Below, piece by piece: positions 53-47,259 of a stretch of DNA of 64,000 nucleotides (position 1 is the first letter of the stretch; every line of letters begins with the position of its first letter). Source of the stretch: an uncultured Victivallis sp. (lineage in GTDB: Bacteria; Verrucomicrobiota; Lentisphaeria; Victivallales; GWF2-50-93). The translations under genes and the position numbers were made by a program. Where the stretch lies: positions 118,068-182,067 of the forward strand of contig CAZRKP010000005.1 in the NCBI GenBank assembly GCA_964600895.1, written 5' to 3'. The notes under the pieces were generated by a model. It was not told the DNA's origin and did not search any database. It saw only the letters and a list, made by a program, of their open reading frames with translations.

Positions 53-77
53 GGATATTTTCCTCCTTCATAAGATT

Positions 78-112
78 TTTTAACCACAGAACACACGAAA
101 CACACAGAATTC
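78..112. repeat. CACAGAA-word repeat element: three ~8-9 bp units preceded by TTTTAACC
   Basis: 'ttttaaccacagaacacacgaaacacacagaattc'. The same architecture occurs at 10531-10563 and, inverted, at 10806-10837. Variants occur at 39646, 40307 and 45781. Confidence 0.7.
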
Positions 113-9788: not shown

Positions 9789-10385
9789 TTATCTGGCGTA
9801 GAATTCAACTACTCTCATGATCTCGACGCCTGTGGGATTTTCTTCAAGCAGGGGTTCCCTGACGACCTTCACCTTGCAGTGTTCCCTGTCGACCTCATGA
9901 TATGGCGGAACTTCGCAGTTCGCGTTCTTTGCGATGTTCGCAATTGCGGGATCCTTCTCTACATTGATGCTGATGACCTGTCCAGGACGGAGCCTGTATG
10001 AGGGACGGTCGACGATCTTGCCGTCGACAAGTATATGGCGGTGCACAACAAACTGTTTTGCCGCATGGATAGTCGGAGCGAGTCCGCTACGGTAAACTGC
10101 CGCGTCAAGCCTGAATTCGAGGTTGCGGAGGAGCTTCTGGTCGGTCTGGGTCTTACCGCTCTTCGCATCGACGAATGAGAGGTGGAGCTGTTTCTCGGTG
10201 AGTCCGTAGTAGACCTTCAGCCTCTGCTTCTGCAGGAGGAGTTCCCCGTAGGTTGAGAGTTTCTTCTGTGCGGTCTTTCCGTGCGGTCCGGCCGCGTACG
10301 GCCTTTTCGCACTTGGACACTTGGCTTTCCCCCAGATGCAGACACCCAGGCGGCGGCATAGTTTGTGTTTGGCTCGAGCTTGCAT
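9789..10385 (-). CDS. rpsD: 30S ribosomal protein S4
   Basis: 'KLCRRLGVCIWGK...YGELLLQKQRLKVYYGLTEKQ...LEFRLDAAVYRSGLAPTIHAAKQFVVHRHILVDGKIVDRPSYRLRPG' matches S4 along its full length. Confidence 0.97.
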   Translation of the reverse strand: MQARAKHKLCRRLGVCIWGKAKCPSAKRPYAAGPHGKTAQKKLSTYGELLLQKQRLKVYYGLTEKQLHLSFVDAKSGKTQTDQKLLRNLEFRLDAAVYRSGLAPTIHAAKQFVVHRHILVDGKIVDRPSYRLRPGQVISINVEKDPAIANIAKNANCEVPPYHEVDREHCKVKVVREPLLEENPTGVEIMRVVEFYAR

Positions 10386-10530
10386 GATCTCCTTTGATTG
10401 TTTTGTTTTATGGAAGCAGGTGTCAAGCTGTTTTGGAACCTGTCCTCCACCTTTTTACTCTTCTGCCTTTTATTTGGCAAAGGGGTGAAATTTAGCAGAT
10501 ATTGAAGCTTTATCAACTGCAATATGGATT

Positions 10531-10837
10531 TTTTAACCACAGAACACACAGATTACACAGAAAAATATGATGTTATTACCGTTTAACCACTTAATTGTAA
10601 GATGCTTAGGTGATATAGAAAAACCTTTAATTCTCCAAATGAAAAGATCACCGTATTTAGGTAGCAAAGGAGGAAAAGAAATCATGTAAAGCTATGCCGA
10701 GGGATATGTCACCCCTCTCCTTCTAACCGACAGGCTCTGGAACCGCAGAACCGAATCCGGCAGTGTCCTGCTCAGTCTACGAATATTTTTTTCTTTTTTT
10801 GAATCTTCTGTGTAATCTGTGTGTTCTGTGGTTAAAA
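10531..10837. repeat. 32-bp perfect inverted repeat (10531-10562 / 10806-10837) bracketing a 242-bp non-coding segment
   Basis: 'ttttaaccacagaacacacagattacacagaa' and its exact reverse complement 'ttctgtgtaatctgtgtgttctgtggttaaaa'. Confidence 0.9.
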
Positions 10838-10843
10838 TATCTC

Positions 10844-11491
10844 ATGAATTATTCCCAAAAACTCAAGAAGCTTACCGATAGGGTGCGTAAACGCCTGGAA
10901 TCGGCACCGGGCTGCCATGACTGGGAGCACACTCGCCGCGTCCTGCACAACGCCCGCATGATCGCTTCGGGTGAAAAGAAGGTCAATCTGCATGTGGTCG
11001 AATGCGCTGCGGTCCTGCATGACATTGCCCGTCCTGAAGAACTGAAGAGCAAAGGAAAGCTATGCCATGCTGTAATCGGTTCAGAACTCGCCATAAAGTT
11101 CCTCAGATCCTGCGAATTCCGCAACGAGGAATTCATCAGGAAGGTCTGCACCTGCGTAAAAACACACAGATACCGCGGGGGGCACAGCCCTTTACTTATT
11201 GAAGAAAAGATCGTGTATGACGCGGATAAGCTTGATTCCATTGGAGCGATCGGTGTCGGTCGTGCTTTCCATTTCGCCGGCAGGATCGGGGCGAAGGTCC
11301 ACAACACCGAATCCGAGGCTCTCGGATCAGATTCATACAGTTCGGAAGATTCCGCCTACCGCGAATATCTTGTGAAGCTCCGCCACATCCATGGCAAGAT
11401 GCTGACGAAAACTGGCCGTAAGATAGCAAGGCAGCGTTCCGACTTCATGCACGAGTTCTTTAAACAAATCAACAGAGAAGTCTACGGATAA
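10844..11491 (+). CDS. HD domain-containing metal-dependent phosphohydrolase
   Basis: 'HDWEHTRRVLHNARMI...AAVLHDIARPEE...YDADKLDSIGAIG' carries the H..HD..D signature. The ORF-track extension from 10763 reads through the repeat element, so ATG 10844 is preferred. Confidence 0.85.
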   Translation: MNYSQKLKKLTDRVRKRLESAPGCHDWEHTRRVLHNARMIASGEKKVNLHVVECAAVLHDIARPEELKSKGKLCHAVIGSELAIKFLRSCEFRNEEFIRKVCTCVKTHRYRGGHSPLLIEEKIVYDADKLDSIGAIGVGRAFHFAGRIGAKVHNTESEALGSDSYSSEDSAYREYLVKLRHIHGKMLTKTGRKIARQRSDFMHEFFKQINREVYG

Positions 11492-12681: not shown

Positions 12682-16113
<3,432 letters not shown>

Positions 16114-16216
16114 CCCCCCACGCCCTATGTCCTTTTCAAGCGTAGGATGAACTGACTTTTGCTCGCTACCGTTGATAGAATCTTTTTTTCCATAAATATT
16201 ATCCGAAATATTTAGT

Positions 16217-19200
16217 TTACTTTGAACTCCAGCGTTTCCGCCAGTTTTCGGTGCTTTCCTTACGGAGTTCATCAGAGGTCTTGGTCCAATCAAGGGCGGT
16301 GAAAATGGTAAACCCCTCCTTGCCATCGGTCCGCCCGTCAATAACTAATTCCCTCTGATCGGGGGAGAACCTGCCCCATGAAACTTGTCTAATGATGCCA
16401 CTAAACTTCAGAAGTTCATTCTGGGTATTCGGCTCCCAGATTCGGACTGTATGATCATTACTTCCGGAAATAATTCTCTTCCCGTCCGGTGAAAATTCAG
16501 CGAAACAGACAGCCTGTGAATGCATTTTTATTTCCCAGGCACAGGTTCCTGCCTCAATATTCCAAAATCTTATATATCCTGAATAATAGCCTACCAGTAA
16601 ATATTTCCCGTCTGGCGAGAAAGTCACTGACCAAGGGGAATCCATTGCTATGAAAGTCCTGTTCTCTTTCCGGGAAACAAGATCCCAAATGACAATACTG
16701 CTTTGGGGAGGGCATATGGCAATGCACGAGTCGTCTGGACTGAATGCTATCCAATGCGGATTATTCCATTGGATCTTGGATATTTTCAAATCCAAAATTA
16801 TCTGGCCTGAAGCCGCATCCCTTATAAAAGGACCTGCTTTCACATATCGTCCAGTGTTTGAGAATCCAAGATTCATGTCCAGTTTGGTATCCTGCTGCAC
16901 GGACCATATATTCTTCTTTGTCTGAAGATTGTGGAGAACAAGCGTGTTGGCCTTGTCCTTGTCAAACATGAGCATATAGCGACCATCTCTAGAGACGGTT
17001 GAATATCCATATCTGACTCCAGAGGGGCCTATGGAACGCTGTTCAACTGCCTGATTCCATATGCCCTTTGCATAGAAAAATGAATTCTTGCCTTGTAACT
17101 CTGAAATAAAGGCTCTTCCATCATCAAGAAATTCCAAATCCCCCATCATGGAAGGTTTGGAAAAGGGAATAATGACCTTTTGAGGAAGCTGCTGGAACGG
17201 CCAGATCCTGACAGCATATTTCGATTCATTTGCAGCGGTAAGCAGGCTTTTACTGTAGGGAAGAAGGACACACTTCAGTACTTGTTCGGAATGTCCTGTA
17301 AATTTACTGATCATCCTTCCAGTTTTACTTTCCCAGACATGAACCGCCCCTCCTGCATCTCCTGAAAAGATGTAATCTCCTTCCGGCGAATAGGAAATTG
17401 TGGAAATCGCAGCTCCTGTATTTTGAGACATGAGAACAGTCTTTCCTGTTGTCAAATCCAGTTCAACAACACTTCCGTTCCAACAGCCTCCGGCAAGCCT
17501 TGATCCATCCGGTGAAAAAACACTATATTCATGCCATCCTTCGGTGGTCAGTAAAATATCACCCTTCTGCGTGTCATATATTTTTGTTCTGTGCAAATTA
17601 CTACCAACATCTTCAGAAAATGACATTTTTCTCCCGTCAGGTGAGACAATAATGGGGATACTTCCTTCATTAAGCTTGCGAATCTCCTTCCCTTCCCTAA
17701 TATCCCATAAGGCGTGCTCCATCTTCTTTTTATCTGTATCAAGAGAGGCTGAAATCACGGCATGTGAATTATCTTGCATAAAGATGACCTTCTGGAAGGA
17801 ATAGCCTTCTTTATTTTGAGTCCATAAGACACGACTGCTTTCCAAATCAAACAAGGAAATATCACTGTCTCTCGCCATAATTATAGTCTGCCCATCAGGA
17901 GAAATAGAGAGTACAAATGTTGAAGCTGGTTTTGTTAAATATGAAATATCCAGCCGTTTCAACTCCCGTGCCCCTTGTACGTCCCATAGGATCCTTTCTT
18001 TAGCTTTATGAGATCCAGTAATCATCCTTTTCCCATCTGCGCTCACTTTGCAGAGCCAGATCGATTCGACATTGAAAACAGCTTCCTCTCTGGGGCAAAG
18101 CCCCATCAGATATCCCCATTCCCAGTTCCGCAGATATTGAGGACAACTTTCCAAAGTATTCTTGGCCGAAATAATATCTCCCTCGGCTATTTTACGGTCC
18201 GCAAGCTGGATTTTCGCCACATAGGCTTCCCATTCAGCCTTCTTCCTGATTTCTTTTTCACTTTCTTCAGCAGCTTGGGCTTTTTTCATGGAAGCAGAAG
18301 CAACTTTTTCATTGGCAACTGCCTTCCTCCACTGGGCAAGAGAGATTACAAGACCAAGCATTATTGAAAGAAGGACAAGGGCGGCAGCAGTTACAAAACC
18401 CTTGTGCCGTTTCGCCAGAAGCCAGAACTGCTTTATCACGCCTGCCTTTTCTGCGGATGTCGCAAATCCCCCTTGATACGCCTCAATGTCCTTCTGCAAA
18501 GCCTTCACATCCTGATAACGTTCCTCTTTCCTAAGCGACAACGCCTTCAGTGCTACTGACGACAGCGCCGGAGGTATATGCCCTCCGGGCAGATGAGGCA
18601 AGGACAATTTGTGTGACTTCTCATATTTCGTCGGCGGTTCGATCTGCCCCTTCGCCACCTTCATGAGGACTTCGTTGACGCTGGTACCTTCAATCGGAGG
18701 ATGAAGGGTGAGTATCTGGTAGAGGATGGCACCGAGTGCATAGATGTCGGTTCGCTGGTCAATCTCCGATATTCTGCCATACGCCTGTTCCGGAGCCATA
18801 TATAACGGAGTGCCCCTGAGCTGTCCTTCCATGGTCATCGCACCTGATCCGGCAATATTCTCTTCTGTCCTTGCGGATTCTATCTGAGCACTGGTATCTT
18901 CAGCTTCTTCCTCTTTGCTCCCAAGAACCTTCCCAAGACCCCAGTCCATAACAAGCGCCTCTCCGAACTCTCCAACCATGATGTTCTCGGGTTTCAGATC
19001 CCGGTGGACAACTCCTTTTGTATGCGCAAAAGACATGGCTTCGCAGATCTTCAGGAAGATATTGAGAAGACTGTTTAGAGGATATTTCGTGATTAATTCG
19101 GCGTCCCCATCTTTGATTCCCGCCAGAATCTTATCAAGGTTGTCCCCTTTTATGAACTTCATCGTGTAGAAGACGTTGCCAGAAGAATCGACCCCGAGCT

Positions 19201-19582
19201 CATGGACAGGAACGATACTCGGATGCTCCATCTGTCCGGTGATCTGCGCTTCCTCAATAAACCTTAGTATCTGTTCATCGTTGGCCCTTTTCGGATCAAG
19301 TAGCACCTTCATCGCTACGGTACGACGGATATTTAAATCCTTGGCCTGAAGTATCGCTCCCATGCCCCCTGCGGCAACTTTGCTTCCAATGTCGTATTTC
19401 TTTCCGGCTTGATCGACGAGAATTGAAGATGCGGAAGAAGAGGACTTTCCCTTTTCATCAAGGGCAACTCCACCATCAATTCCCTTCTTTTCCAGGAACT
19501 GCGTGATCGTTATCCCGCCGCGCTGGATGTCGGAGTCAAGGGTTGCTTTCAATTCGGAAAGATTATTTTCCCTGTCAGCCAT
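16217..19582 (-). CDS. Ser/Thr protein kinase - TM - coiled coil - WD40 beta-propeller protein (paralogue 2)
   Basis: Same architecture as paralogue 1. The kinase domain is near-identical, including an 89-nt stretch of perfect DNA identity (19113-19201 versus 15713-15801). Confidence 0.9.
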   Translation of the reverse strand: MADRENNLSELKATLDSDIQRGGITITQFLEKKGIDGGVALDEKGKSSSSASSILVDQAGKKYDIGSKVAAGGMGAILQAKDLNIRRTVAMKVLLDPKRANDEQILRFIEEAQITGQMEHPSIVPVHELGVDSSGNVFYTMKFIKGDNLDKILAGIKDGDAELITKYPLNSLLNIFLKICEAMSFAHTKGVVHRDLKPENIMVGEFGEALVMDWGLGKVLGSKEEEAEDTSAQIESARTEENIAGSGAMTMEGQLRGTPLYMAPEQAYGRISEIDQRTDIYALGAILYQILTLHPPIEGTSVNEVLMKVAKGQIEPPTKYEKSHKLSLPHLPGGHIPPALSSVALKALSLRKEERYQDVKALQKDIEAYQGGFATSAEKAGVIKQFWLLAKRHKGFVTAAALVLLSIMLGLVISLAQWRKAVANEKVASASMKKAQAAEESEKEIRKKAEWEAYVAKIQLADRKIAEGDIISAKNTLESCPQYLRNWEWGYLMGLCPREEAVFNVESIWLCKVSADGKRMITGSHKAKERILWDVQGARELKRLDISYLTKPASTFVLSISPDGQTIIMARDSDISLFDLESSRVLWTQNKEGYSFQKVIFMQDNSHAVISASLDTDKKKMEHALWDIREGKEIRKLNEGSIPIIVSPDGRKMSFSEDVGSNLHRTKIYDTQKGDILLTTEGWHEYSVFSPDGSRLAGGCWNGSVVELDLTTGKTVLMSQNTGAAISTISYSPEGDYIFSGDAGGAVHVWESKTGRMISKFTGHSEQVLKCVLLPYSKSLLTAANESKYAVRIWPFQQLPQKVIIPFSKPSMMGDLEFLDDGRAFISELQGKNSFFYAKGIWNQAVEQRSIGPSGVRYGYSTVSRDGRYMLMFDKDKANTLVLHNLQTKKNIWSVQQDTKLDMNLGFSNTGRYVKAGPFIRDAASGQIILDLKISKIQWNNPHWIAFSPDDSCIAICPPQSSIVIWDLVSRKENRTFIAMDSPWSVTFSPDGKYLLVGYYSGYIRFWNIEAGTCAWEIKMHSQAVCFAEFSPDGKRIISGSNDHTVRIWEPNTQNELLKFSGIIRQVSWGRFSPDQRELVIDGRTDGKEGFTIFTALDWTKTSDELRKESTENWRKRWSSK

Positions 19583-22962: not shown

Positions 22963-24801
22963 ATGGCAAGGATAATAGCTGCTGACGACAATAAGATAAC
23001 CCAGATGTTCTACGAGAACATTTTGGAATTCCTCGGCCATGAATACAAGATATGTTCAAACGGCGAGGAGGTCATCGAGGAGTTCATAAGGAAACCAGTG
23101 GACCTCCTGATACTTGACTACCAGATGCCCAAGATGGACGGATTTGAGGTCTGCCGCAAACTCAGGGCTTCTGCGGAAGGAATAACTGTCCCTATAATCA
23201 TAGTCTCCGCCATGCAGGATGAGGAGACCATCATGGAGGGACTCGATGCAGGAGCTACCGACTATCTGCTCAAACCGGTCACAGAAGCACATCTGATTGC
23301 AAAGCTCAAGAACTATCTTAATACTTCCTCCCTTCACAGGAAGGATCTGGATCTTGTGAAGAGCCAGACTGTCTTCGCCGGCCATTACAAGATCGAAAAA
23401 CTGCTCGGATATGGCAGCCATTCAGTGGTTTTCCTGGCGAAGGACAGGAAGAACAATGATGCCGATGTCGCCATAAAGCTCCTGCATGAGAATTCAGATA
23501 CCGTGGCAATAGCCCCAACATTCATGGAGACGGCCTCCAGGATGAGGAATTTGAACTCCGAAAACATATTGAAGATACTTGATTCAGGCCAGTATGGGGG
23601 TCGCCTCTATCTGATAATGGAATACGCGAACCAGAAGGATCTCGCTTCACTGCTGAAGACAAGAACCCTCACCGACAGGGAGACGGCTCTTCTGATATCA
23701 AGCATGCTGGAAGCACTGAAGACACTAAAGGAAAACAACCTCGTCCATTTTGACATAAAACCGGAGAACATCCTGATAAAGGACAATCTCTTCAAGCTGG
23801 GCGATTTTGGGATAGTACCATCTGCCAATGCTAAAAGTACGATTTCACTGGACAAGGGGAATGTCTGGACAACGATGTCCTATCTTGCCCCGGAAAATCT
23901 GAATCTCTCCACAGATCAGACATTCTCTCCTGATATAAGATGCGACATCTACAGTCTTGGTGTCACTGCATATGAATCATTTTCCGGAGACAATCCTTTC
24001 GATTCTGACAAGCTCACTGTTTCAATTCACAGGCAGCTGAGCTATGTCCCTCCTCCATTGCATGTCCAGACTCCTGCGATCCTGCGCATACTTTCAGATG
24101 CTATTGAATCAATGCTCAGGAAAAATCCCGAGGAAAGGGCTGAACTCGACCAGCTTCTGCCTGCTTTTGTGGAAATAAACGCCTATCTCGCGACCAAAAA
24201 TCCTGTCTTAGTAGGATATACTACCGGTTCAGAGGCCAAGCCTGAGGAACAGAAACCTGTCGGTAATGCCGGTCCTGCCCAGGAACCATCAAAATCTGAA
24301 CCTGCTGAAGCCAGCGAACCAGTTCTGGAACCGCTGTCCAAAACATATTTCAGGGAGCTTCCCTACAGGGAGGCCTATGATTTCAAATATAAGGCTCTCA
24401 GGCTCATTGCTGCCGTTGCAATTCTGGCAGTAAGCACCTGGCTCAGCCTGACATTATACAAGTTCATGTTGAACAAGATGACCCCTGTAGATGATACTGC
24501 TTCCATATACGCGGTCAAATGCAGGAGTTGCGGACAGTTCCAGGAAATGAACATAACTGACATAAAGAATGCAAAATGCCAGTTCTGCAAAAAGACAGAT
24601 CTTTGCTATATGATGACTTGCGACGACTGCGGAAACGTATTCCCGTTCAGAAATGAATATCCGAAGGATGTAAAGTCAAAGGAAGAAATGATAGAAGCTC
24701 TTCAGCAGATGAACCGCTGTCCATCATGCGGCTCATCGAAGATCGAACCTTCATATACGAATATCAAGATGCTGAAGAAGTTCAAATCCGAAAAGAAGTG
24801 A
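22963..24801 (+). CDS. Response-regulator receiver (REC) - Ser/Thr protein kinase - TM - double zinc-ribbon fusion protein
   Basis: REC: 'IIAADDN...DLLILDYQMPKMDGFEVCRKLR...DYLLKPV'. Kinase: 'VAIKLL', 'HFDIKPENILI', 'GDFGI', 'YLAPE'. TM: 'LIAAVAILAVSTWLSLTLY'. The C-terminus has CxxC pairs ('CRSCG..CQFCKK', 'CDDCG..CPSCGS'). Confidence 0.9.
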   Translation: MARIIAADDNKITQMFYENILEFLGHEYKICSNGEEVIEEFIRKPVDLLILDYQMPKMDGFEVCRKLRASAEGITVPIIIVSAMQDEETIMEGLDAGATDYLLKPVTEAHLIAKLKNYLNTSSLHRKDLDLVKSQTVFAGHYKIEKLLGYGSHSVVFLAKDRKNNDADVAIKLLHENSDTVAIAPTFMETASRMRNLNSENILKILDSGQYGGRLYLIMEYANQKDLASLLKTRTLTDRETALLISSMLEALKTLKENNLVHFDIKPENILIKDNLFKLGDFGIVPSANAKSTISLDKGNVWTTMSYLAPENLNLSTDQTFSPDIRCDIYSLGVTAYESFSGDNPFDSDKLTVSIHRQLSYVPPPLHVQTPAILRILSDAIESMLRKNPEERAELDQLLPAFVEINAYLATKNPVLVGYTTGSEAKPEEQKPVGNAGPAQEPSKSEPAEASEPVLEPLSKTYFRELPYREAYDFKYKALRLIAAVAILAVSTWLSLTLYKFMLNKMTPVDDTASIYAVKCRSCGQFQEMNITDIKNAKCQFCKKTDLCYMMTCDDCGNVFPFRNEYPKDVKSKEEMIEALQQMNRCPSCGSSKIEPSYTNIKMLKKFKSEKK

Positions 24802-25329: not shown

Positions 25330-25731
25330 CTAAGCACTCTTTACATAGTTGAATTTAAAGGAACCGGTGCCGATGGGAATCACAGCGTCATCAAAGAGCC
25401 TGTAGGTATCCTTCTCGAATTTCTGTCTGTTCTGGCCTAAAACATGCACTTCGAAGTATTTCTCGGCAGGATGGCATATGAGCTCGAGGTGGTGCCTTGA
25501 AACAAACTTGTCTGTTATTGTGATGTGATTGCCAGATCCCCTTCCTATGGAATACGACAGGGGTAGAAGATCTATTACAGTTCCCTCCTTAATGTTCTCA
25601 AAGGGATCGATGCATACAAGCCTGGCCACTACGAGGTTCTTCTTGCAATTGGGACAGGAAAGTGAATTTCTGCCATTGTCCGCCCCGCAATGGAAACATT
25701 TGAAAGATTCTTCCATCTCCACTTCTCCCAT
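25330..25731 (-). CDS. Zinc-ribbon + FHA domain protein
   Basis: 'CFHCGADNGRNSLSCPNCKK' is a zinc ribbon. 'IGRGSGNHITITDKFVSRHHLEL...' is the FHA GR...SxxH core. Confidence 0.8.
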   Translation of the reverse strand: MGEVEMEESFKCFHCGADNGRNSLSCPNCKKNLVVARLVCIDPFENIKEGTVIDLLPLSYSIGRGSGNHITITDKFVSRHHLELICHPAEKYFEVHVLGQNRQKFEKDTYRLFDDAVIPIGTGSFKFNYVKSA

Positions 25732-32105: not shown

Positions 32106-33278
32106 CTATGATGAGGGGGCTTTTCCATCTTCAATAAGGCCTATGTACCCGAAATGTATCGTCATGTCTCCCTTAATGCTTTGCACCTGCGACTTATCAT
32201 AATAAATTACAGAGCACCCTCCTAACTGGACAAGATCCCCGGAAACAAGAATCCTGCGTTCAATCCTTGAACCATTGACATAGGTTCCATTCGCGCTGCT
32301 TTCATCCTTGACTGAGACAGTTGTCCCTTTGAGTTCAAAGGTCGCATGATGGCCCGATACTGTTTCAGAATTTAAGATTACGTCTGAAGACCTGTCCCTT
32401 CCGGCCCTGAGTGTTTTTCCGACGGATACATGGAAGGGATTTCCTTTTTCCGGGATAACAAGCAGGAAAAGTCCTGTCTGTTCGGGAATTGAAACCGACG
32501 ACATCTTTATCCTTATATCATCAATCCTCCTGCTCAGAGCCCTGTTCATTGTATCCTGCACTATCGTTTCCCTGTAGTTTGGAGTGCTATCCACCAGCGA
32601 TTCCAATGCGGATAAGATCACCTTCTCGTTTTTCGTCATCATCGCCAAAGTCTCTTCATCTCCAATGTCCTGGATTATCTGCATAAATTCCTTCTGCACG
32701 ATACCGAGGAAGCGGCTTTTGTGCTGGTAGACTGTTCCCGGTCTGTCAATCCCCAGCCTTTTGCATACTTCATTTACATCCAAGCCTTCAAGGACATAAA
32801 GGCAGAACGATTTATATGTCAGCGAATCAACTTTTCCATATGCTTGCCTGAGAGCCTGGGAGACAACTCCCCTTATCCATATTTCATCATTTTCAGAGTT
32901 GTCGGATACAGCGAGTAAAATATTGTTTTCTACTGCATCTTTTTCATCTGATTCGCCATCTGGAGAGGCAAATAGTTCATTTTCATTCTTCCTGCTTCTT
33001 ATGGTATCAATCACTCGCGCGTAAACTATTTTTTTCAAAAGACCGCGGAAACGACCTTTTTCAGGATGATATTCGAACTCCGGCATTATCCTAAGGAGAC
33101 ATAGCATGGTCTCCTGGAATACGTCATCCAGAAGGGACGGAGGACAGCCCTTGTTCCTTGCCCATCCGGTGATGATGTCCCAGTAAAACTGTGCGAATTC
33201 GGTCCATGCCGTCTCGTCGGCAGGATTTTTGAGCCGCATAAGAAGCGTACAGTGGGTCATTTTATCTGAATACTGCAT
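32106..33278 (-). CDS. Sigma-70 family (ECF-like) RNA polymerase sigma factor fused to a C-terminal FHA domain
   Basis: Region 2-like: 'AWTEFAQFYWDIITGWARNKG...DDVFQETMLCLL'. Region 4-like: 'FCLYVLEGLDVNEVCKRLGIDRPGTVYQHKSRF'. FHA: 'LRAGRDRSSDVILNSETVSGHHATFEL...SSANGTYVNGSRI...GDLVQLG'. Start candidates are TTG 33311, ATG 33278 and ATG 33260. Confidence 0.85.
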   Translation of the reverse strand: MQYSDKMTHCTLLMRLKNPADETAWTEFAQFYWDIITGWARNKGCPPSLLDDVFQETMLCLLRIMPEFEYHPEKGRFRGLLKKIVYARVIDTIRSRKNENELFASPDGESDEKDAVENNILLAVSDNSENDEIWIRGVVSQALRQAYGKVDSLTYKSFCLYVLEGLDVNEVCKRLGIDRPGTVYQHKSRFLGIVQKEFMQIIQDIGDEETLAMMTKNEKVILSALESLVDSTPNYRETIVQDTMNRALSRRIDDIRIKMSSVSIPEQTGLFLLVIPEKGNPFHVSVGKTLRAGRDRSSDVILNSETVSGHHATFELKGTTVSVKDESSANGTYVNGSRIERRILVSGDLVQLGGCSVIYYDKSQVQSIKGDMTIHFGYIGLIEDGKAPSS

Positions 33279-33383
33279 GGATAAAATTATTATAAATAAC
33301 CCTTTTTTCAATATTTATCTAAATTTGAGGCGGTTCATGTTTTCAGGATATTTGGTGTGATTTTAGTCAAAATGCGCCTTCTT

Positions 33384-40301: not shown

Positions 40302-41168
40302 TTAATATAAACCACGAATCACACGAATTACACGGAAGTTCAAATATTTTTTTTCTTTCATGAGGGAATCCTTCCCGTTCCTGTATTCGATCGGTGTGCA
40401 TCCGGTGATCTTCTTGAAGACGGTGCTGAAATAATTACCATTCCTGAATCCGCACATTCCAGCTATCTCCGAAATGGTCAATTCCTTATGGAGCCTCAGG
40501 AAGGTTTTCGCCTCATGCGCCCGTTTCCCATTCAGGAGGATCCGGAAAGTCTTGCCGGTAGTGCTGTGTATCCGTCCACTGAGATAATTTGGATTCACAC
40601 CCATTAGCGCCGCAAGATCCAGGAGGGAAACATCCTTGGCATATTTCTGGTCGATGAATGAATTGCACTGGGAGATGAAGTCCGAATCCTTGCGGTGTTT
40701 GAACAACTCCGGCTGTTCGAACGCCAGCAGCTCCAGTTCTGTCCTTATGAACTGGGAAGTAAATGACGCCCAACTGCGAAGCTCATTTTTCTTCATTGTC
40801 TCCACAGAACTTGCAACGGCTGTTCCACCTTTTACTTTTCCCTCTTCACGGATATGTCCAAGATATATTACTGCAGCAAGTTTCCCGGCATACATCACTG
40901 GCTGTGCAAGTTCCCAGACCCCGAACGGGCACACACCGCAGAATGATCTTCCCTTCTGCGAGATCAAGATGCTTCTTTTCTTGTTTTTCTGGCATGCCTT
41001 GAAATCTGAACCAAGTTTCATCTGCCTGCAGAAATCTCCGGAATGGATATGCTGGTCCGGATCCAGCTTCAGCCTGTCGGCAGTAAGGAAAGCCGGATGC
41101 AAGGTCTCGATGTTGACCACCGTCCCTGTCTTCCTTGCAATATACCTGAGTAATTTTGATAGCCTCAT
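40302..41168 (-). CDS. AraC family transcriptional regulator with an N-terminal PocR-like sensory domain
   Basis: The N-terminus 'FCRQM...CQKNKK...SFCGVCPFGVWELAQPVMYAGKLAAVIYLG' is PocR-like. The C-terminus 'LAALMGVNPNYLSGRIHSTTGKTF...EIAGMCGFRNGNYFSTVFKKITGCTPIEYR' is an AraC HTH. Confidence 0.8.
   Translation of the reverse strand: MRLSKLLRYIARKTGTVVNIETLHPAFLTADRLKLDPDQHIHSGDFCRQMKLGSDFKACQKNKKRSILISQKGRSFCGVCPFGVWELAQPVMYAGKLAAVIYLGHIREEGKVKGGTAVASSVETMKKNELRSWASFTSQFIRTELELLAFEQPELFKHRKDSDFISQCNSFIDQKYAKDVSLLDLAALMGVNPNYLSGRIHSTTGKTFRILLNGKRAHEAKTFLRLHKELTISEIAGMCGFRNGNYFSTVFKKITGCTPIEYRNGKDSLMKEKKYLNFRVIRVIRGLY
40307..40341. repeat. CACGAAT-word repeat (variant of the CACAGAA family)
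   Basis: 'ataaaccacgaatcacacgaattacacggaagttc'. It lies 32 nt upstream of the hisB ATG and forms the last codons of the upstream AraC ORF ('RVIRVIRGLY'). Confidence 0.6.
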
Positions 41169-45780: not shown

Positions 45781-45809
45781 CTTTGTGCCTTAGTGTCTCT
45801 GTGGTTAGA
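45781..45809. repeat. CACAGAG-word repeat (GC-richer variant)
   Basis: 'ctttgtgccttagtgtctctgtggttaga' overlaps the purB stop codon and lies 29 nt upstream of the longest BNR ORF start. Confidence 0.6.
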
Positions 45810-47259
45810 CTGAAATGCTGCTCTTCTTCTTTTCGCCTTCGGCGAGGACGGCCTTATATTTCTTGAGGACCGGAGCAACCTCGTCTTTCAGGAAATCGTC
45901 CACCTGTTCCGGAGCGCGGCCGACGAATTTCCTCGGATCCATGATCTTGTCGATGTTCTTTGCGATCTTCGCAAAAAGCTTGTCTTTCTTGATGCGTTCA
46001 AGGAGATCGTTTGATTCTCCCAGTTCCTTGACCCTTCTTCCGGCCGCCATCGAATGCGTGCGGATCGCCTCGTGGAGTTCCTGTCGGTCCCCGCCGGCCT
46101 TCACTGCGGCCATGAGGATGTTTTCGGTGGCCATGAAGGGGAGTTCGCTCCTGACGCGGTTCTCGATGATCTTCGGCCAGACCTGTATCCCTTCTGCGAC
46201 ATTCGCAAGAACGGAGAGGATGATGTCTGTAGCGAGGAACGATTCTCCCAGGACTATCCTGCGGTTGGCAGAGTCATCAAGCGTCCTTTCGAACCACTGG
46301 CTGGCATGAGTGTTTGCGGGATTCGCAGTAAGGGAGATGACGTATCTCGCAAGCGAGCAAACCCTCTCGCAGCGCATCGGGTTGCGCTTGTACGCCATCG
46401 CGCTGGAACCGACCTGTTTTGACTCGAATGGCTCCTCAATTTCCTTCAGGTTCGCAAGCAGACGCAGGTCTCCGGCAAACTTGTAGGCTGTCTGGGCGAT
46501 TCCAGAAAGAACGGATATCACATAATAGTCGACTTTTCTCGTATATGTCTGTCCGCTGACCGGTATTGATTTTTCAAAACCCATTTCCTTGGTGACCAGT
46601 TCATTGAGCTTTCTGACCTTGGCGTGGTCGCCATTGAAAAGCTCAAGGAAACTGGCCTGTGTACCGGTAGTTCCTTTTACTCCCCTGAATGGAAGATGTT
46701 CAAGCTCATATTCGAGGCGCTCCAGATCGAGGAGCATGTCCTGGATGTAGAGTGTAAATCTTTTTCCGACTGTCGTTAGCTGGGCCGGCTGGTAGTGCGT
46801 GAACCCGAGGGTCGGCATGTCCTTGTACTGTTCAGCGATCTTTGCGAACTTCGCAATAGCCACCAGCAGGGCACGGCGGATGAGTTTCAGGCCGTCGCGC
46901 ATCTGGATGAGTTCAGTATTGTCAGTGACATAACAGCTTGTAGCTCCAAGGTGTATGATGGGTTTCGCCTTGGGACAGAGTTCCCCGAAGACGTGGATGT
47001 GGCTCATCACGTCGTGGCGTAGTTCCTTTTCCTTGGCGGTGGCGGCTTCGAAATCAATGTCGTCGAGATGGGCTGCCATCTGTTTGAGCTGCTCATCAGT
47101 TATGTCGAGTCCGAGCTTTTTTTCGTTCTTTGCGAGTACAAACCAGAGACGGCGCCAGGTGGAATGTTTTTTCTGGGCTGACCAGTTATAGCTCATTTCC
47201 TTGCTGGCATAGCGTGAAGTTAATGGATTTTCATAGATTTGGCAGTTCACCTTTTTCAC
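45805..47259 (-). CDS. purB: Adenylosuccinate lyase
   Basis: '[19 protein letters not shown]', '[12 protein letters not shown]' and '[15 protein letters not shown]' are fumarate-lyase/ADSL signatures. Confidence 0.95.

Follow-up and report, generated by a model that had tools for sequence, protein, structure and literature searches.

Between the divergent genes for ribosomal protein S4 (rpsD) and an HD-domain phosphohydrolase, the 64,000-nt stretch of Lentisphaerota DNA analysed here (hereafter the window) carries a long inverted repeat around a short segment. Repeats of this kind flank invertible promoters and also bound miniature inverted-repeat elements (MITEs), and a first-pass annotation made from the sequence had raised both possibilities. 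We asked whether the segment inverts and so controls its neighbours, whether the unit is a mobile element, or whether the two arms have another origin and function. Loci in other genomes are designated by L numbers and proteins by P numbers.

Architecture of the inverted repeat

The two arms are exact reverse complements over 32 nt (10531–10562 and 10806–10837), precisely where the first-pass annotation had placed them, and extending them outward gives 36-nt arms with a single mismatch (35 of 36 positions matching; Table 1). The inter-arm distance is 243 nt, not the 242 bp given earlier, and the whole arm–spacer–arm unit measures 315 nt. On the right, the perfect arm ends 6 nt before the ATG of the HD gene, as had been described, and the extended arm ends 2 nt before it. 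A 30-mer from the arm matches twice in the window and not once in 100 dinucleotide-preserving shuffles. Each arm consists of a TTAACC "head", written GAT[T/A]TTTTAACC, followed by three 9-nt units of the CACAGAA type arranged head to tail. Because the heads point away from each other, we refer to the arrangement as head-out. If transcribed, the 315-nt unit is predicted to form an RNA stem of 32–36 bp (dG −102 kcal/mol, z = −7.7); both putative arm promoters, however, aim away from the unit.

Table 1. Features of the rpsD–HD region, other repeat copies in the window, and arm-bracketed GxxExxY units at loci elsewhere.
Feature	Position	Strand	Description
Left arm	10527–10562	+	Head GATTTTTTAACC, then units ACCACAGAA, CACACAGAT and TACACAGAA, in that order; head points left, towards rpsD
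Spacer	10563–10805		243 nt, single-copy; no credible ORF, no sigma70-like site
Right arm	10806–10841	−	Reverse complement of the left arm; head points right, towards the HD gene
−10-like box	10833–10838	+	TAAAAT inside the right-arm head, 5 nt before the HD ATG; read from the sequence
HD-domain phosphohydrolase gene	10844–11491	+	215 aa; PF01966; homologues of equal length
rpsD (ribosomal protein S4)	9789–10385	−	198 aa; PF00163, PF01479
rpsD sigma70-type promoter	10489–10516	−	TTGATA-16 nt-TG-c-TAAATT; 10 nt outside the left arm; from promoter scan and conservation
Third copy, arm subfamily	74–109	+	4 differences from the arms; head points left
Fourth copy, CACGAA word type	40304–40337	−	TTCCGTGTAATTCGTGTGATTCGTGGTTTATATT; about 30 nt upstream of a hisB-like gene (ATG 40274)
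Degenerate fifth copy	45783–45808	+	TTTGTGCCTTAGTGTCTCTGTGGTTAG; adjoins an adenylosuccinate-lyase-like ORF
GxxExxY units	L098:6419–7039; L102:5232–5675; L136:24–625; L145:458–1074; L155:427–1121		Arms on both sides

The spacer had been described as non-coding, and its lack of a credible ORF agrees with this. It contains a lone arm head (TTTAACCAC, 10582–10590), an SD-like AAAGGAGG followed by ATG-TAA, a "start-stop" (10666–10689), and a T tract (10786–10800) that adjoins the right arm and pairs with a spacer purine tract in the RNA fold. Rfam returned nothing for the arms, the spacer or hairpin-type relatives (window at the gathering threshold; 20 related loci), and, for the region at a permissive E-value, matches at chance level only. 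There are no genes for tRNA or tmRNA.

In the window as a whole, the repeat occurs in four full copies and one degenerate copy. A two-unit regular expression recovers the window copies, for which shuffles predict 0.4 matches. The related half-site noted earlier at 78–112 is real and corresponds to the third copy, whereas the fourth and the degenerate fifth copy had been overlooked. Downstream of the third copy's head, on the minus strand, AAGGAGG (68–62) and ATGATG (52–47) make a short leader with a Shine–Dalgarno (SD) sequence. At the fourth copy, an AraC-like ORF (40302–41168) continues for about 24 codons past its HTH domain, through the arm, and stops in the arm head. At the degenerate copy, the stop codon of the adenylosuccinate-lyase-like ORF (45805–47259, minus strand) is the TTA of the head (45805–45807).

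The start of the HD gene at 10844 is backed by about 120 homologues of 212–220 aa with approximately 100% coverage. The wider window is an unusually dense eukaryote-like signalling neighbourhood. It encodes, in the regions 12682–19582 and 22963–24801, two very large Ser/Thr-kinase proteins with WD40 beta-propeller domains (1219 and 1121 aa), a further kinase adjoining the HD gene and a response-regulator–kinase fusion; FHA-domain proteins follow at 25330–25731 and 32106–33311.

Orientation of the segment

An inverton at this locus would flip the 243-nt segment by site-specific or homologous recombination and thereby switch the expression of rpsD, the HD gene or both. Several properties are compatible with such a switch: (i) perfect inverted repeats of 32–36 nt around 243 nt have the appropriate geometry. 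(ii) The window pair is the sole perfect one (31 of 31 positions) among 65 distinct head-out pairs, for which the median is 23 of 31, as would be expected if recombination homogenised the arms. (iii) The spacer is asymmetric, with its T tract beside the right arm. (iv) A Logan contig breaks within the arm, although an assembler with k = 31 would break there regardless.

The available assemblies argue against inversion. The same rpsD protein is found in seven of them (five ENA samples, one JGI metagenome and one Logan run). In six, the whole 458-nt intergenic region is 100% identical to the window and in one orientation; the seventh, the Logan contig, ends inside the arm, as expected for an inverted repeat longer than k. 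A single orientation is thus seen across assemblies from at least three sources, assemblies being records of the majority orientation only. Pfam gave no recombinase, integrase or transposase domain for any of the window's 52 ORFs (110 aa or longer; 64 kb), which bears out the earlier remark that no recombinase gene is nearby; an enzyme encoded at a distance could still act in trans. A simple promoter scan of 10300–10900 called three sigma70-like sites, none of them in the spacer; the −10-like boxes sit in the arm heads, where inversion would leave them unmoved. The same arms also occur singly and in tandem, both in the window and across about 15 phyla. At L132 the arms of the orthologous pair are unlike each other, and the spacer there has its T-rich end beside the right arms as in the window, judging from a weak spacer alignment.

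Of the proposed invertible promoter, then, the repeat geometry survives, whereas a second orientation at the level of assemblies, a recombinase gene and a promoter-like site in the spacer were all absent. The fallback offered with it, that the arms are two promoter-proximal repeat copies, is close to the evidence of one orientation in assemblies and a single-copy interior. Nothing indicates inversion, and the reading is kept alive by the unusual perfection of the window arms; an inverton is very improbable, and the pair is better described as fixed, outward-facing dispersed repeats than as a flip-flop switch.

Nor does rpsD appear to depend on the left arm, since it has its own sigma70-type promoter outside the arm, conserved in L111, L112, L113 and L132 and kept even where a relative lacks the arm. 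Across five species, the rpsD-proximal 135 nt or so (10386–10520) are well conserved and the rest of the intergenic region far less. This block contains two sigma70-like sites, TTGATA-16-TGcTAAATT (10516–10489) and TTGACA-18-AACAAT (10426–10397). It could include an S4 autoregulatory leader; as a structured RNA, the rpsD leader gives a weak consensus fold with one covarying pair and has no Rfam match.

History of the arm pair at orthologous loci

HD orthologues of 81–91% identity were traced to their contigs, and the heads of nine orthologous loci, the window included, were compared. The divergent rpsD–HD arrangement is kept in L111, L112, L113 and L132, with intergenic regions of 248, 145, 202 and 282 nt, respectively, against 458 nt in the window. 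Beyond the rpsD-proximal block these regions are unalignable, except for the left arm of L132 and the HD-proximal arm heads. The presence of arms varies among these loci, which represent different species and not strains: L112 has none, L111 lacks the left arm, and L132 has both. The seven close strains do not differ from one another. In L132, whose HD protein is 86% identical, the left arm (GGAATTTTCAACCACGGAACACGCAGATTACACAGAA) is identical at 33 of 37 positions and has the same position and flank; it is followed by a 37-nt spacer and then two tandem right arms.

An arm head, comprising GTGGT and an A/T-rich box, lies upstream of the HD ATG in eight of the nine orthologues, the exception being L112. 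The window has GTGGTTAAAATATCTC-ATG; L108, L131 and L134 have GTGGTGATATATT-N6-8-ATG; near variants are CTGGTGATATATT-N7-ATG in L111 and GATGATATATT-N9-ATG in L113; L133 has GTGGTAATATATATCTT-ATG and L132 GTGGTGACAAAATCTT-ATG. A different upstream neighbour does not entail loss of the head: L108, with restriction-modification genes there, and L131, with a peptidase gene, both retain it. Species differ in the word type of the HD-proximal arm (CACAGA, CACGGA or CACGA), and all units of an arm switch together; this suggests that arms were replaced, or converted by other family members, and did not drift by point mutation.

Because L132 shares the left arm and eight of the nine orthologues have the HD-proximal head, the pair appears, from these comparisons, to predate the split from the L132 lineage and to be old and static. 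The ends of the window spacer align weakly with the 37-nt spacer of L132, and on this alignment about 200 nt are extra in the window lineage. The spacer may thus have grown by that amount to its 243 nt, with the arms later made identical, probably by gene conversion or by replacement from another copy.

The alternative to an old pair with an expanded spacer is a single recent event, the insertion of one 315-nt MITE at the HD start codon. The arms are indeed perfect; excision of 10527–10843 leaves CTTTATCAACTGCAAT-ATG-AATTATTCC, matching the arm-free L112 (TTTATCAAACTGAAATT-ATG-AAATAT); and an ATG stands on each side of the unit (10524–10526 and 10844–10846, with a 2-nt offset), a possible 3-nt duplication. 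However, the L132 left arm, although it matches in position and flank, has TAG in place of this ATG, so that the flanking "duplication" is not conserved, and no consistent target-site duplication was found in the other family pairs or GxxExxY cassettes examined. HD orthologues, moreover, already bore an arm at that position. The interior has no second copy in the window, in the 155 loci examined or in the metagenome contigs matching the arm, a set of 10 contigs from a scan for the exact 30-mer in a collection that is not exhaustive, the known two-arm contig L003 being absent from it. We consider this single insertion unlikely.

The more general description of the unit as MITE-like holds for its ends and fails for its body. 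Terminal inverted repeats enclose a short, non-coding unit of 315 nt without a credible ORF, and the arms act as terminal inverted repeats of a dispersed family, with 66 head-out against 8 head-in pairs. In place of several full-length copies with a conserved interior, however, the arms alone are repeated, the 243-nt interior is single-copy in everything searched, and there is no convincing target-site duplication. The two arms are copies of a short dispersed repeat, whose head-out pairs resemble the ends of small, mostly empty MITE- or REPIN-like elements.

Possible promoter or operator role of the arms

The first-pass annotation had suggested that TAAAAT at 10833–10838 serves as a −10 box for a leaderless or near-leaderless HD mRNA, and comparison of the nine orthologous loci lends support to this idea. 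In the promoter layout of leaderless mRNAs, a −10 box lies about 5–9 nt before the ATG, there is no SD sequence, and transcription starts at the A of the ATG. All nine HD orthologues have an ATG start and no SD; in the window, the earlier observation that the gene lacks an SD is borne out, with no GGAGG-like sequence between TAAAAT and the ATG at 10844. A −10-like box lies 5–9 nt before the ATG in most of the eight arm-bearing orthologues, the distance in L132 being only 3 nt. The boxes of the orthologues read TGaTATATT or TAATAT and mostly stand 6–9 nt before the ATG, and several are extended (TG-n-TATATT). The A/T-rich head of the right arm may therefore act as the −10 box and give rise to a leaderless HD mRNA. 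The right arm, lacking a −35 match, is not called by the promoter scan. On these alignments, we lean slightly towards a promoter role of the right arm, as a local co-option of the repeat.

Similar arrangements occur elsewhere. Among Lentisphaerota loci, 20 of 68 arm heads have, 5–34 nt further on, the start ATG of an ORF of 80 aa or more, in some cases with an SD between the two; such an SD, as at 74–109, fits a transcription start just beyond the head. Across phyla, ATGs of this kind are found on the head side of 22 of 103 arms and on the tail side of 6 of 103. Over the whole family, however, gene ends (106) are faced by arm heads no less often than gene starts (78), and promoter activity is therefore not the general role of the family. 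Arm heads can also supply stop codons (40302–40337 and 45783–45808).

These observations also bear on a different regulatory reading, in which the three direct 9-nt repeats form an operator bound by a multimeric protein that co-regulates the divergent rpsD and HD genes together with other genes bearing the motif. In its favour, different Lentisphaerota species have the exact 30-mer at sites that are not orthologous; core promoter elements adjoin the arms at rpsD, the HD gene, the gene at the window start and the hisB-like gene; and, from one orthologue to another, all three units of an arm change in concert (CACAGAA, CACGGAA, CACGAA). On the other hand, arms face gene ends as often as starts and overlap stop codons, and they form short hairpin-like pairs and large arrays and bracket GxxExxY genes, all of which points to a selfish repeat and not a regulon. 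Several word types are present within one genome, and no candidate regulator was identified. An operator is accordingly quite unlikely.

Our overall explanation, which we regard as probable, is an old, static pair of dispersed repeats whose right arm would act as the HD promoter and whose spacer does not invert. The arm identity of 31 of 31 positions counts against it, because the same would be seen at a site of active recombination or after a very recent insertion.

A dispersed repeat family across phyla

The 17-mer TTAACCACAGAACACAC is present in more than 100 genome stretches from about 15 phyla among the matches listed, with several occurrences in single genomes. The phyla and groups among these matches include Lentisphaerota, Planctomycetota (Pirellula), Verrucomicrobiota (Lacunisphaera), Kiritimatiellia, Desulfobacterota, Bacteroidota, Gammaproteobacteria and Chloroflexota, among others, and isolate genomes are represented by Desulfobacter vibrioformis DSM 8776, D. 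latus and Pedobacter kyonggii. The family consensus is TTAACC-AC-[AG]GA-ACACAC-[AG]GAA-NACAC-[AG]GAA, each copy having a TTAACC head and then two or three units of 9 nt with the pattern C[AG]C-[AG][AG]A-NNN. Word variants include CACAGAA, CACGGAA, CACGAAT, CACTGAT and CGCAGAT, of which several may coexist in one genome. In this Lentisphaerota genome the density is approximately one copy per 13–16 kb, and different Lentisphaerota species share the exact 30-mer at non-orthologous sites.

Across the roughly 300 sites in the loci examined, adjacent copies are arranged head-out in 66 cases, in tandem in 63 and head-in in 8, and the head-out excess is the signature of terminal inverted repeats. Head-out spacers are mostly 8–150 nt long, with a tail at 152, 203, 301, 302, 396 and 535 nt, so that the 243-nt spacer of the window is long and not unique. 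Compact palindromes of 75–140 nt, built of arms with a varying number of units, occur in Desulfobacter and Pirellula. A contig of a Verrucomicrobiota metagenome-assembled genome (MAG; L085:4560–6060) has more than 25 arms of three word types (CACGAAT, CACAGAA and CACTGAT), arranged as periodic arrays of about 140 nt and as inverted clusters on either side of a small gene pair, resembling the BIMEs of E. coli. One arm pair of Desulfobacter latus has a HEARO (IscB omega-RNA) element some 700 nt away (L087:4610–4829), probably by coincidence.

The family appears to be undescribed in Rfam and the searchable literature. Searches with 13- and 14-mers of the arm returned unrelated eukaryotic primer and siRNA sequences only, and a keyword search on MITEs in PVC bacteria was uninformative. 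When ORFs within 1.5 kb of arms were clustered at about 100 loci, no recurrent cross-phylum flanking gene stood out. We also considered known motifs: likenesses to DnaA, Pho and LexA boxes and to ECF promoters were dropped in view of the 9-nt period, the high copy number and the hairpin and array forms. A phage origin was set aside as well, because four of five matches of the 17-mer in viral contigs are chance occurrences inside a conserved phage gene; the fifth is a real family copy.

Arm pairs and GxxExxY cassettes

Head-out arms bracket GxxExxY genes (121–131 aa; TIGR04256, PF13366/PDDEXK_3, PD-(D/E)XK fold) at all five loci examined, which come from different phyla. The first two cases were found inside wide head-out pairs, one in a Lacunisphaera MAG (396-nt spacer) and one in a Lentisphaeria MAG (573-nt spacer). 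Three further GxxExxY genes (the P0179, P0224 and P0201 loci) were picked by protein homology alone, and all three have head-out arms within about 50–150 nt on both sides; the P0224 locus is inserted so as to separate a PUFA-synthase gene from the gene next to it, and P0201 is a locus of Pirellula sp. SH-Sr6A. The cassettes measure about 440–700 bp. GxxExxY proteins with 74–93% identity are found in Kiritimatiellia, Zetaproteobacteria, Methylomonas, Leptospiraceae, Bacteroidota, Spirochaetota, Desulfobacterota and Planctomycetota. Such near-identity in unrelated phyla agrees with the description of the GxxExxY family as of "function unknown, multiple transfers" (PMC3424549), which is all that the GxxExxY/PF13366 literature states.

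These observations suggest a small selfish cassette with arm pairs as its ends, and with empty pairs and solo arms as its derivatives. The window element itself contains no GxxExxY gene or remnant; neither tblastn nor a profile HMM of 120 homologues run against six-frame translations detected a decayed copy in the 243-nt spacer. A bolder version is tentative, and we think it rather doubtful as a whole: the arms would end undescribed mobile cassettes that cross phyla, the GxxExxY (PDDEXK_3) unit being the autonomous form and elements of the window type being debris that Lentisphaerota have co-opted as portable promoters, often leaderless or with a short leader. Such cassettes would move without target-site duplication, for example by nuclease-triggered copying between arm pairs.

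Implications

For the locus itself, a candidate phase-variation switch is removed and replaced by an ordinary mechanism, a putative repeat-borne promoter for a leaderless HD gene beside rpsD. The locus is ordinary, and the repeat family, with its tandem 9-nt units, head-out arrangement, cross-phylum distribution and GxxExxY linkage, is the more interesting lead. If the link between arms and GxxExxY genes holds, it would provide a first functional context for these abundant, horizontally transferred proteins, and it would identify the arms as a common cause of contig breaks and spurious small ORFs in metagenomes.

The family is likely to be a general source of annotation and assembly artefacts, as in Logan contigs, which break at arms with k = 31. 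Gene callers run ORFs through arms, as in the window (10763–11491) and in P0003 (L133:108–881), and this read-through yields artefactual N-terminal peptides such as FFRVFRVFRG (FRVFRVFRG-like, as in P0003) and LCNLCVLW.

Comparison with known systems

The fimS switch of E. coli, hin of Salmonella and the Mpi-type invertons of Bacteroides resemble the window pair in having inverted repeats around a 200–400-bp non-coding segment beside a gene start. Unlike them, the window pair has neither an invertase nor an internal promoter-like site and is observed in one orientation, and its repeat sequence recurs in distant phyla and also as single and tandem copies. A second point of reference is offered by homing-endonuclease-like, small selfish nuclease-gene cassettes: arms bracket GxxExxY genes, and near-identical GxxExxY proteins occur in unrelated phyla, whereas the window element is gene-free and any action of GxxExxY proteins on the arms is putative.

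Correia (NEMIS) elements of Neisseria are MITEs that create promoters, and their A/T-rich ends can provide an outward-facing −10 box. The present repeats are similarly short and non-coding, with terminal inverted repeats and many intergenic copies, often directly upstream of genes. They differ in that the Correia terminal repeat is a unique 26-nt sequence, whereas the arms consist of three tandem 9-nt units; in that no TA or other target-site duplication was seen; in their non-conserved interiors and their distribution over many phyla; and in that the candidate autonomous form has a PD-(D/E)XK gene and not a DDE transposase.

REP, REPIN and BIME elements, which are mobilised by RAYT (TnpA-REP) transposases, offer another parallel. 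They, too, are extragenic, high-copy sequences of 30–40 nt that occur as singlets, short-spaced inverted doublets and mosaic clusters (compare the L085 array) and are frequent beside gene ends; they lack target-site duplications, of which the arm pairs examined show no consistent example. No RAYT or Y1 (PF01797) gene is present in the window, and no RAYT was identified among the ORF clusters that recur beside arms at about 100 loci, the clusters having been compared without a Pfam scan. A REP is an imperfect palindrome with a 5′ GTAG, whereas the arms are built of direct units, have neither self-complementarity nor GTAG and cannot fold on themselves. Finally, REP sequences are species-specific, whereas the 17-mer of the present family recurs across phyla.
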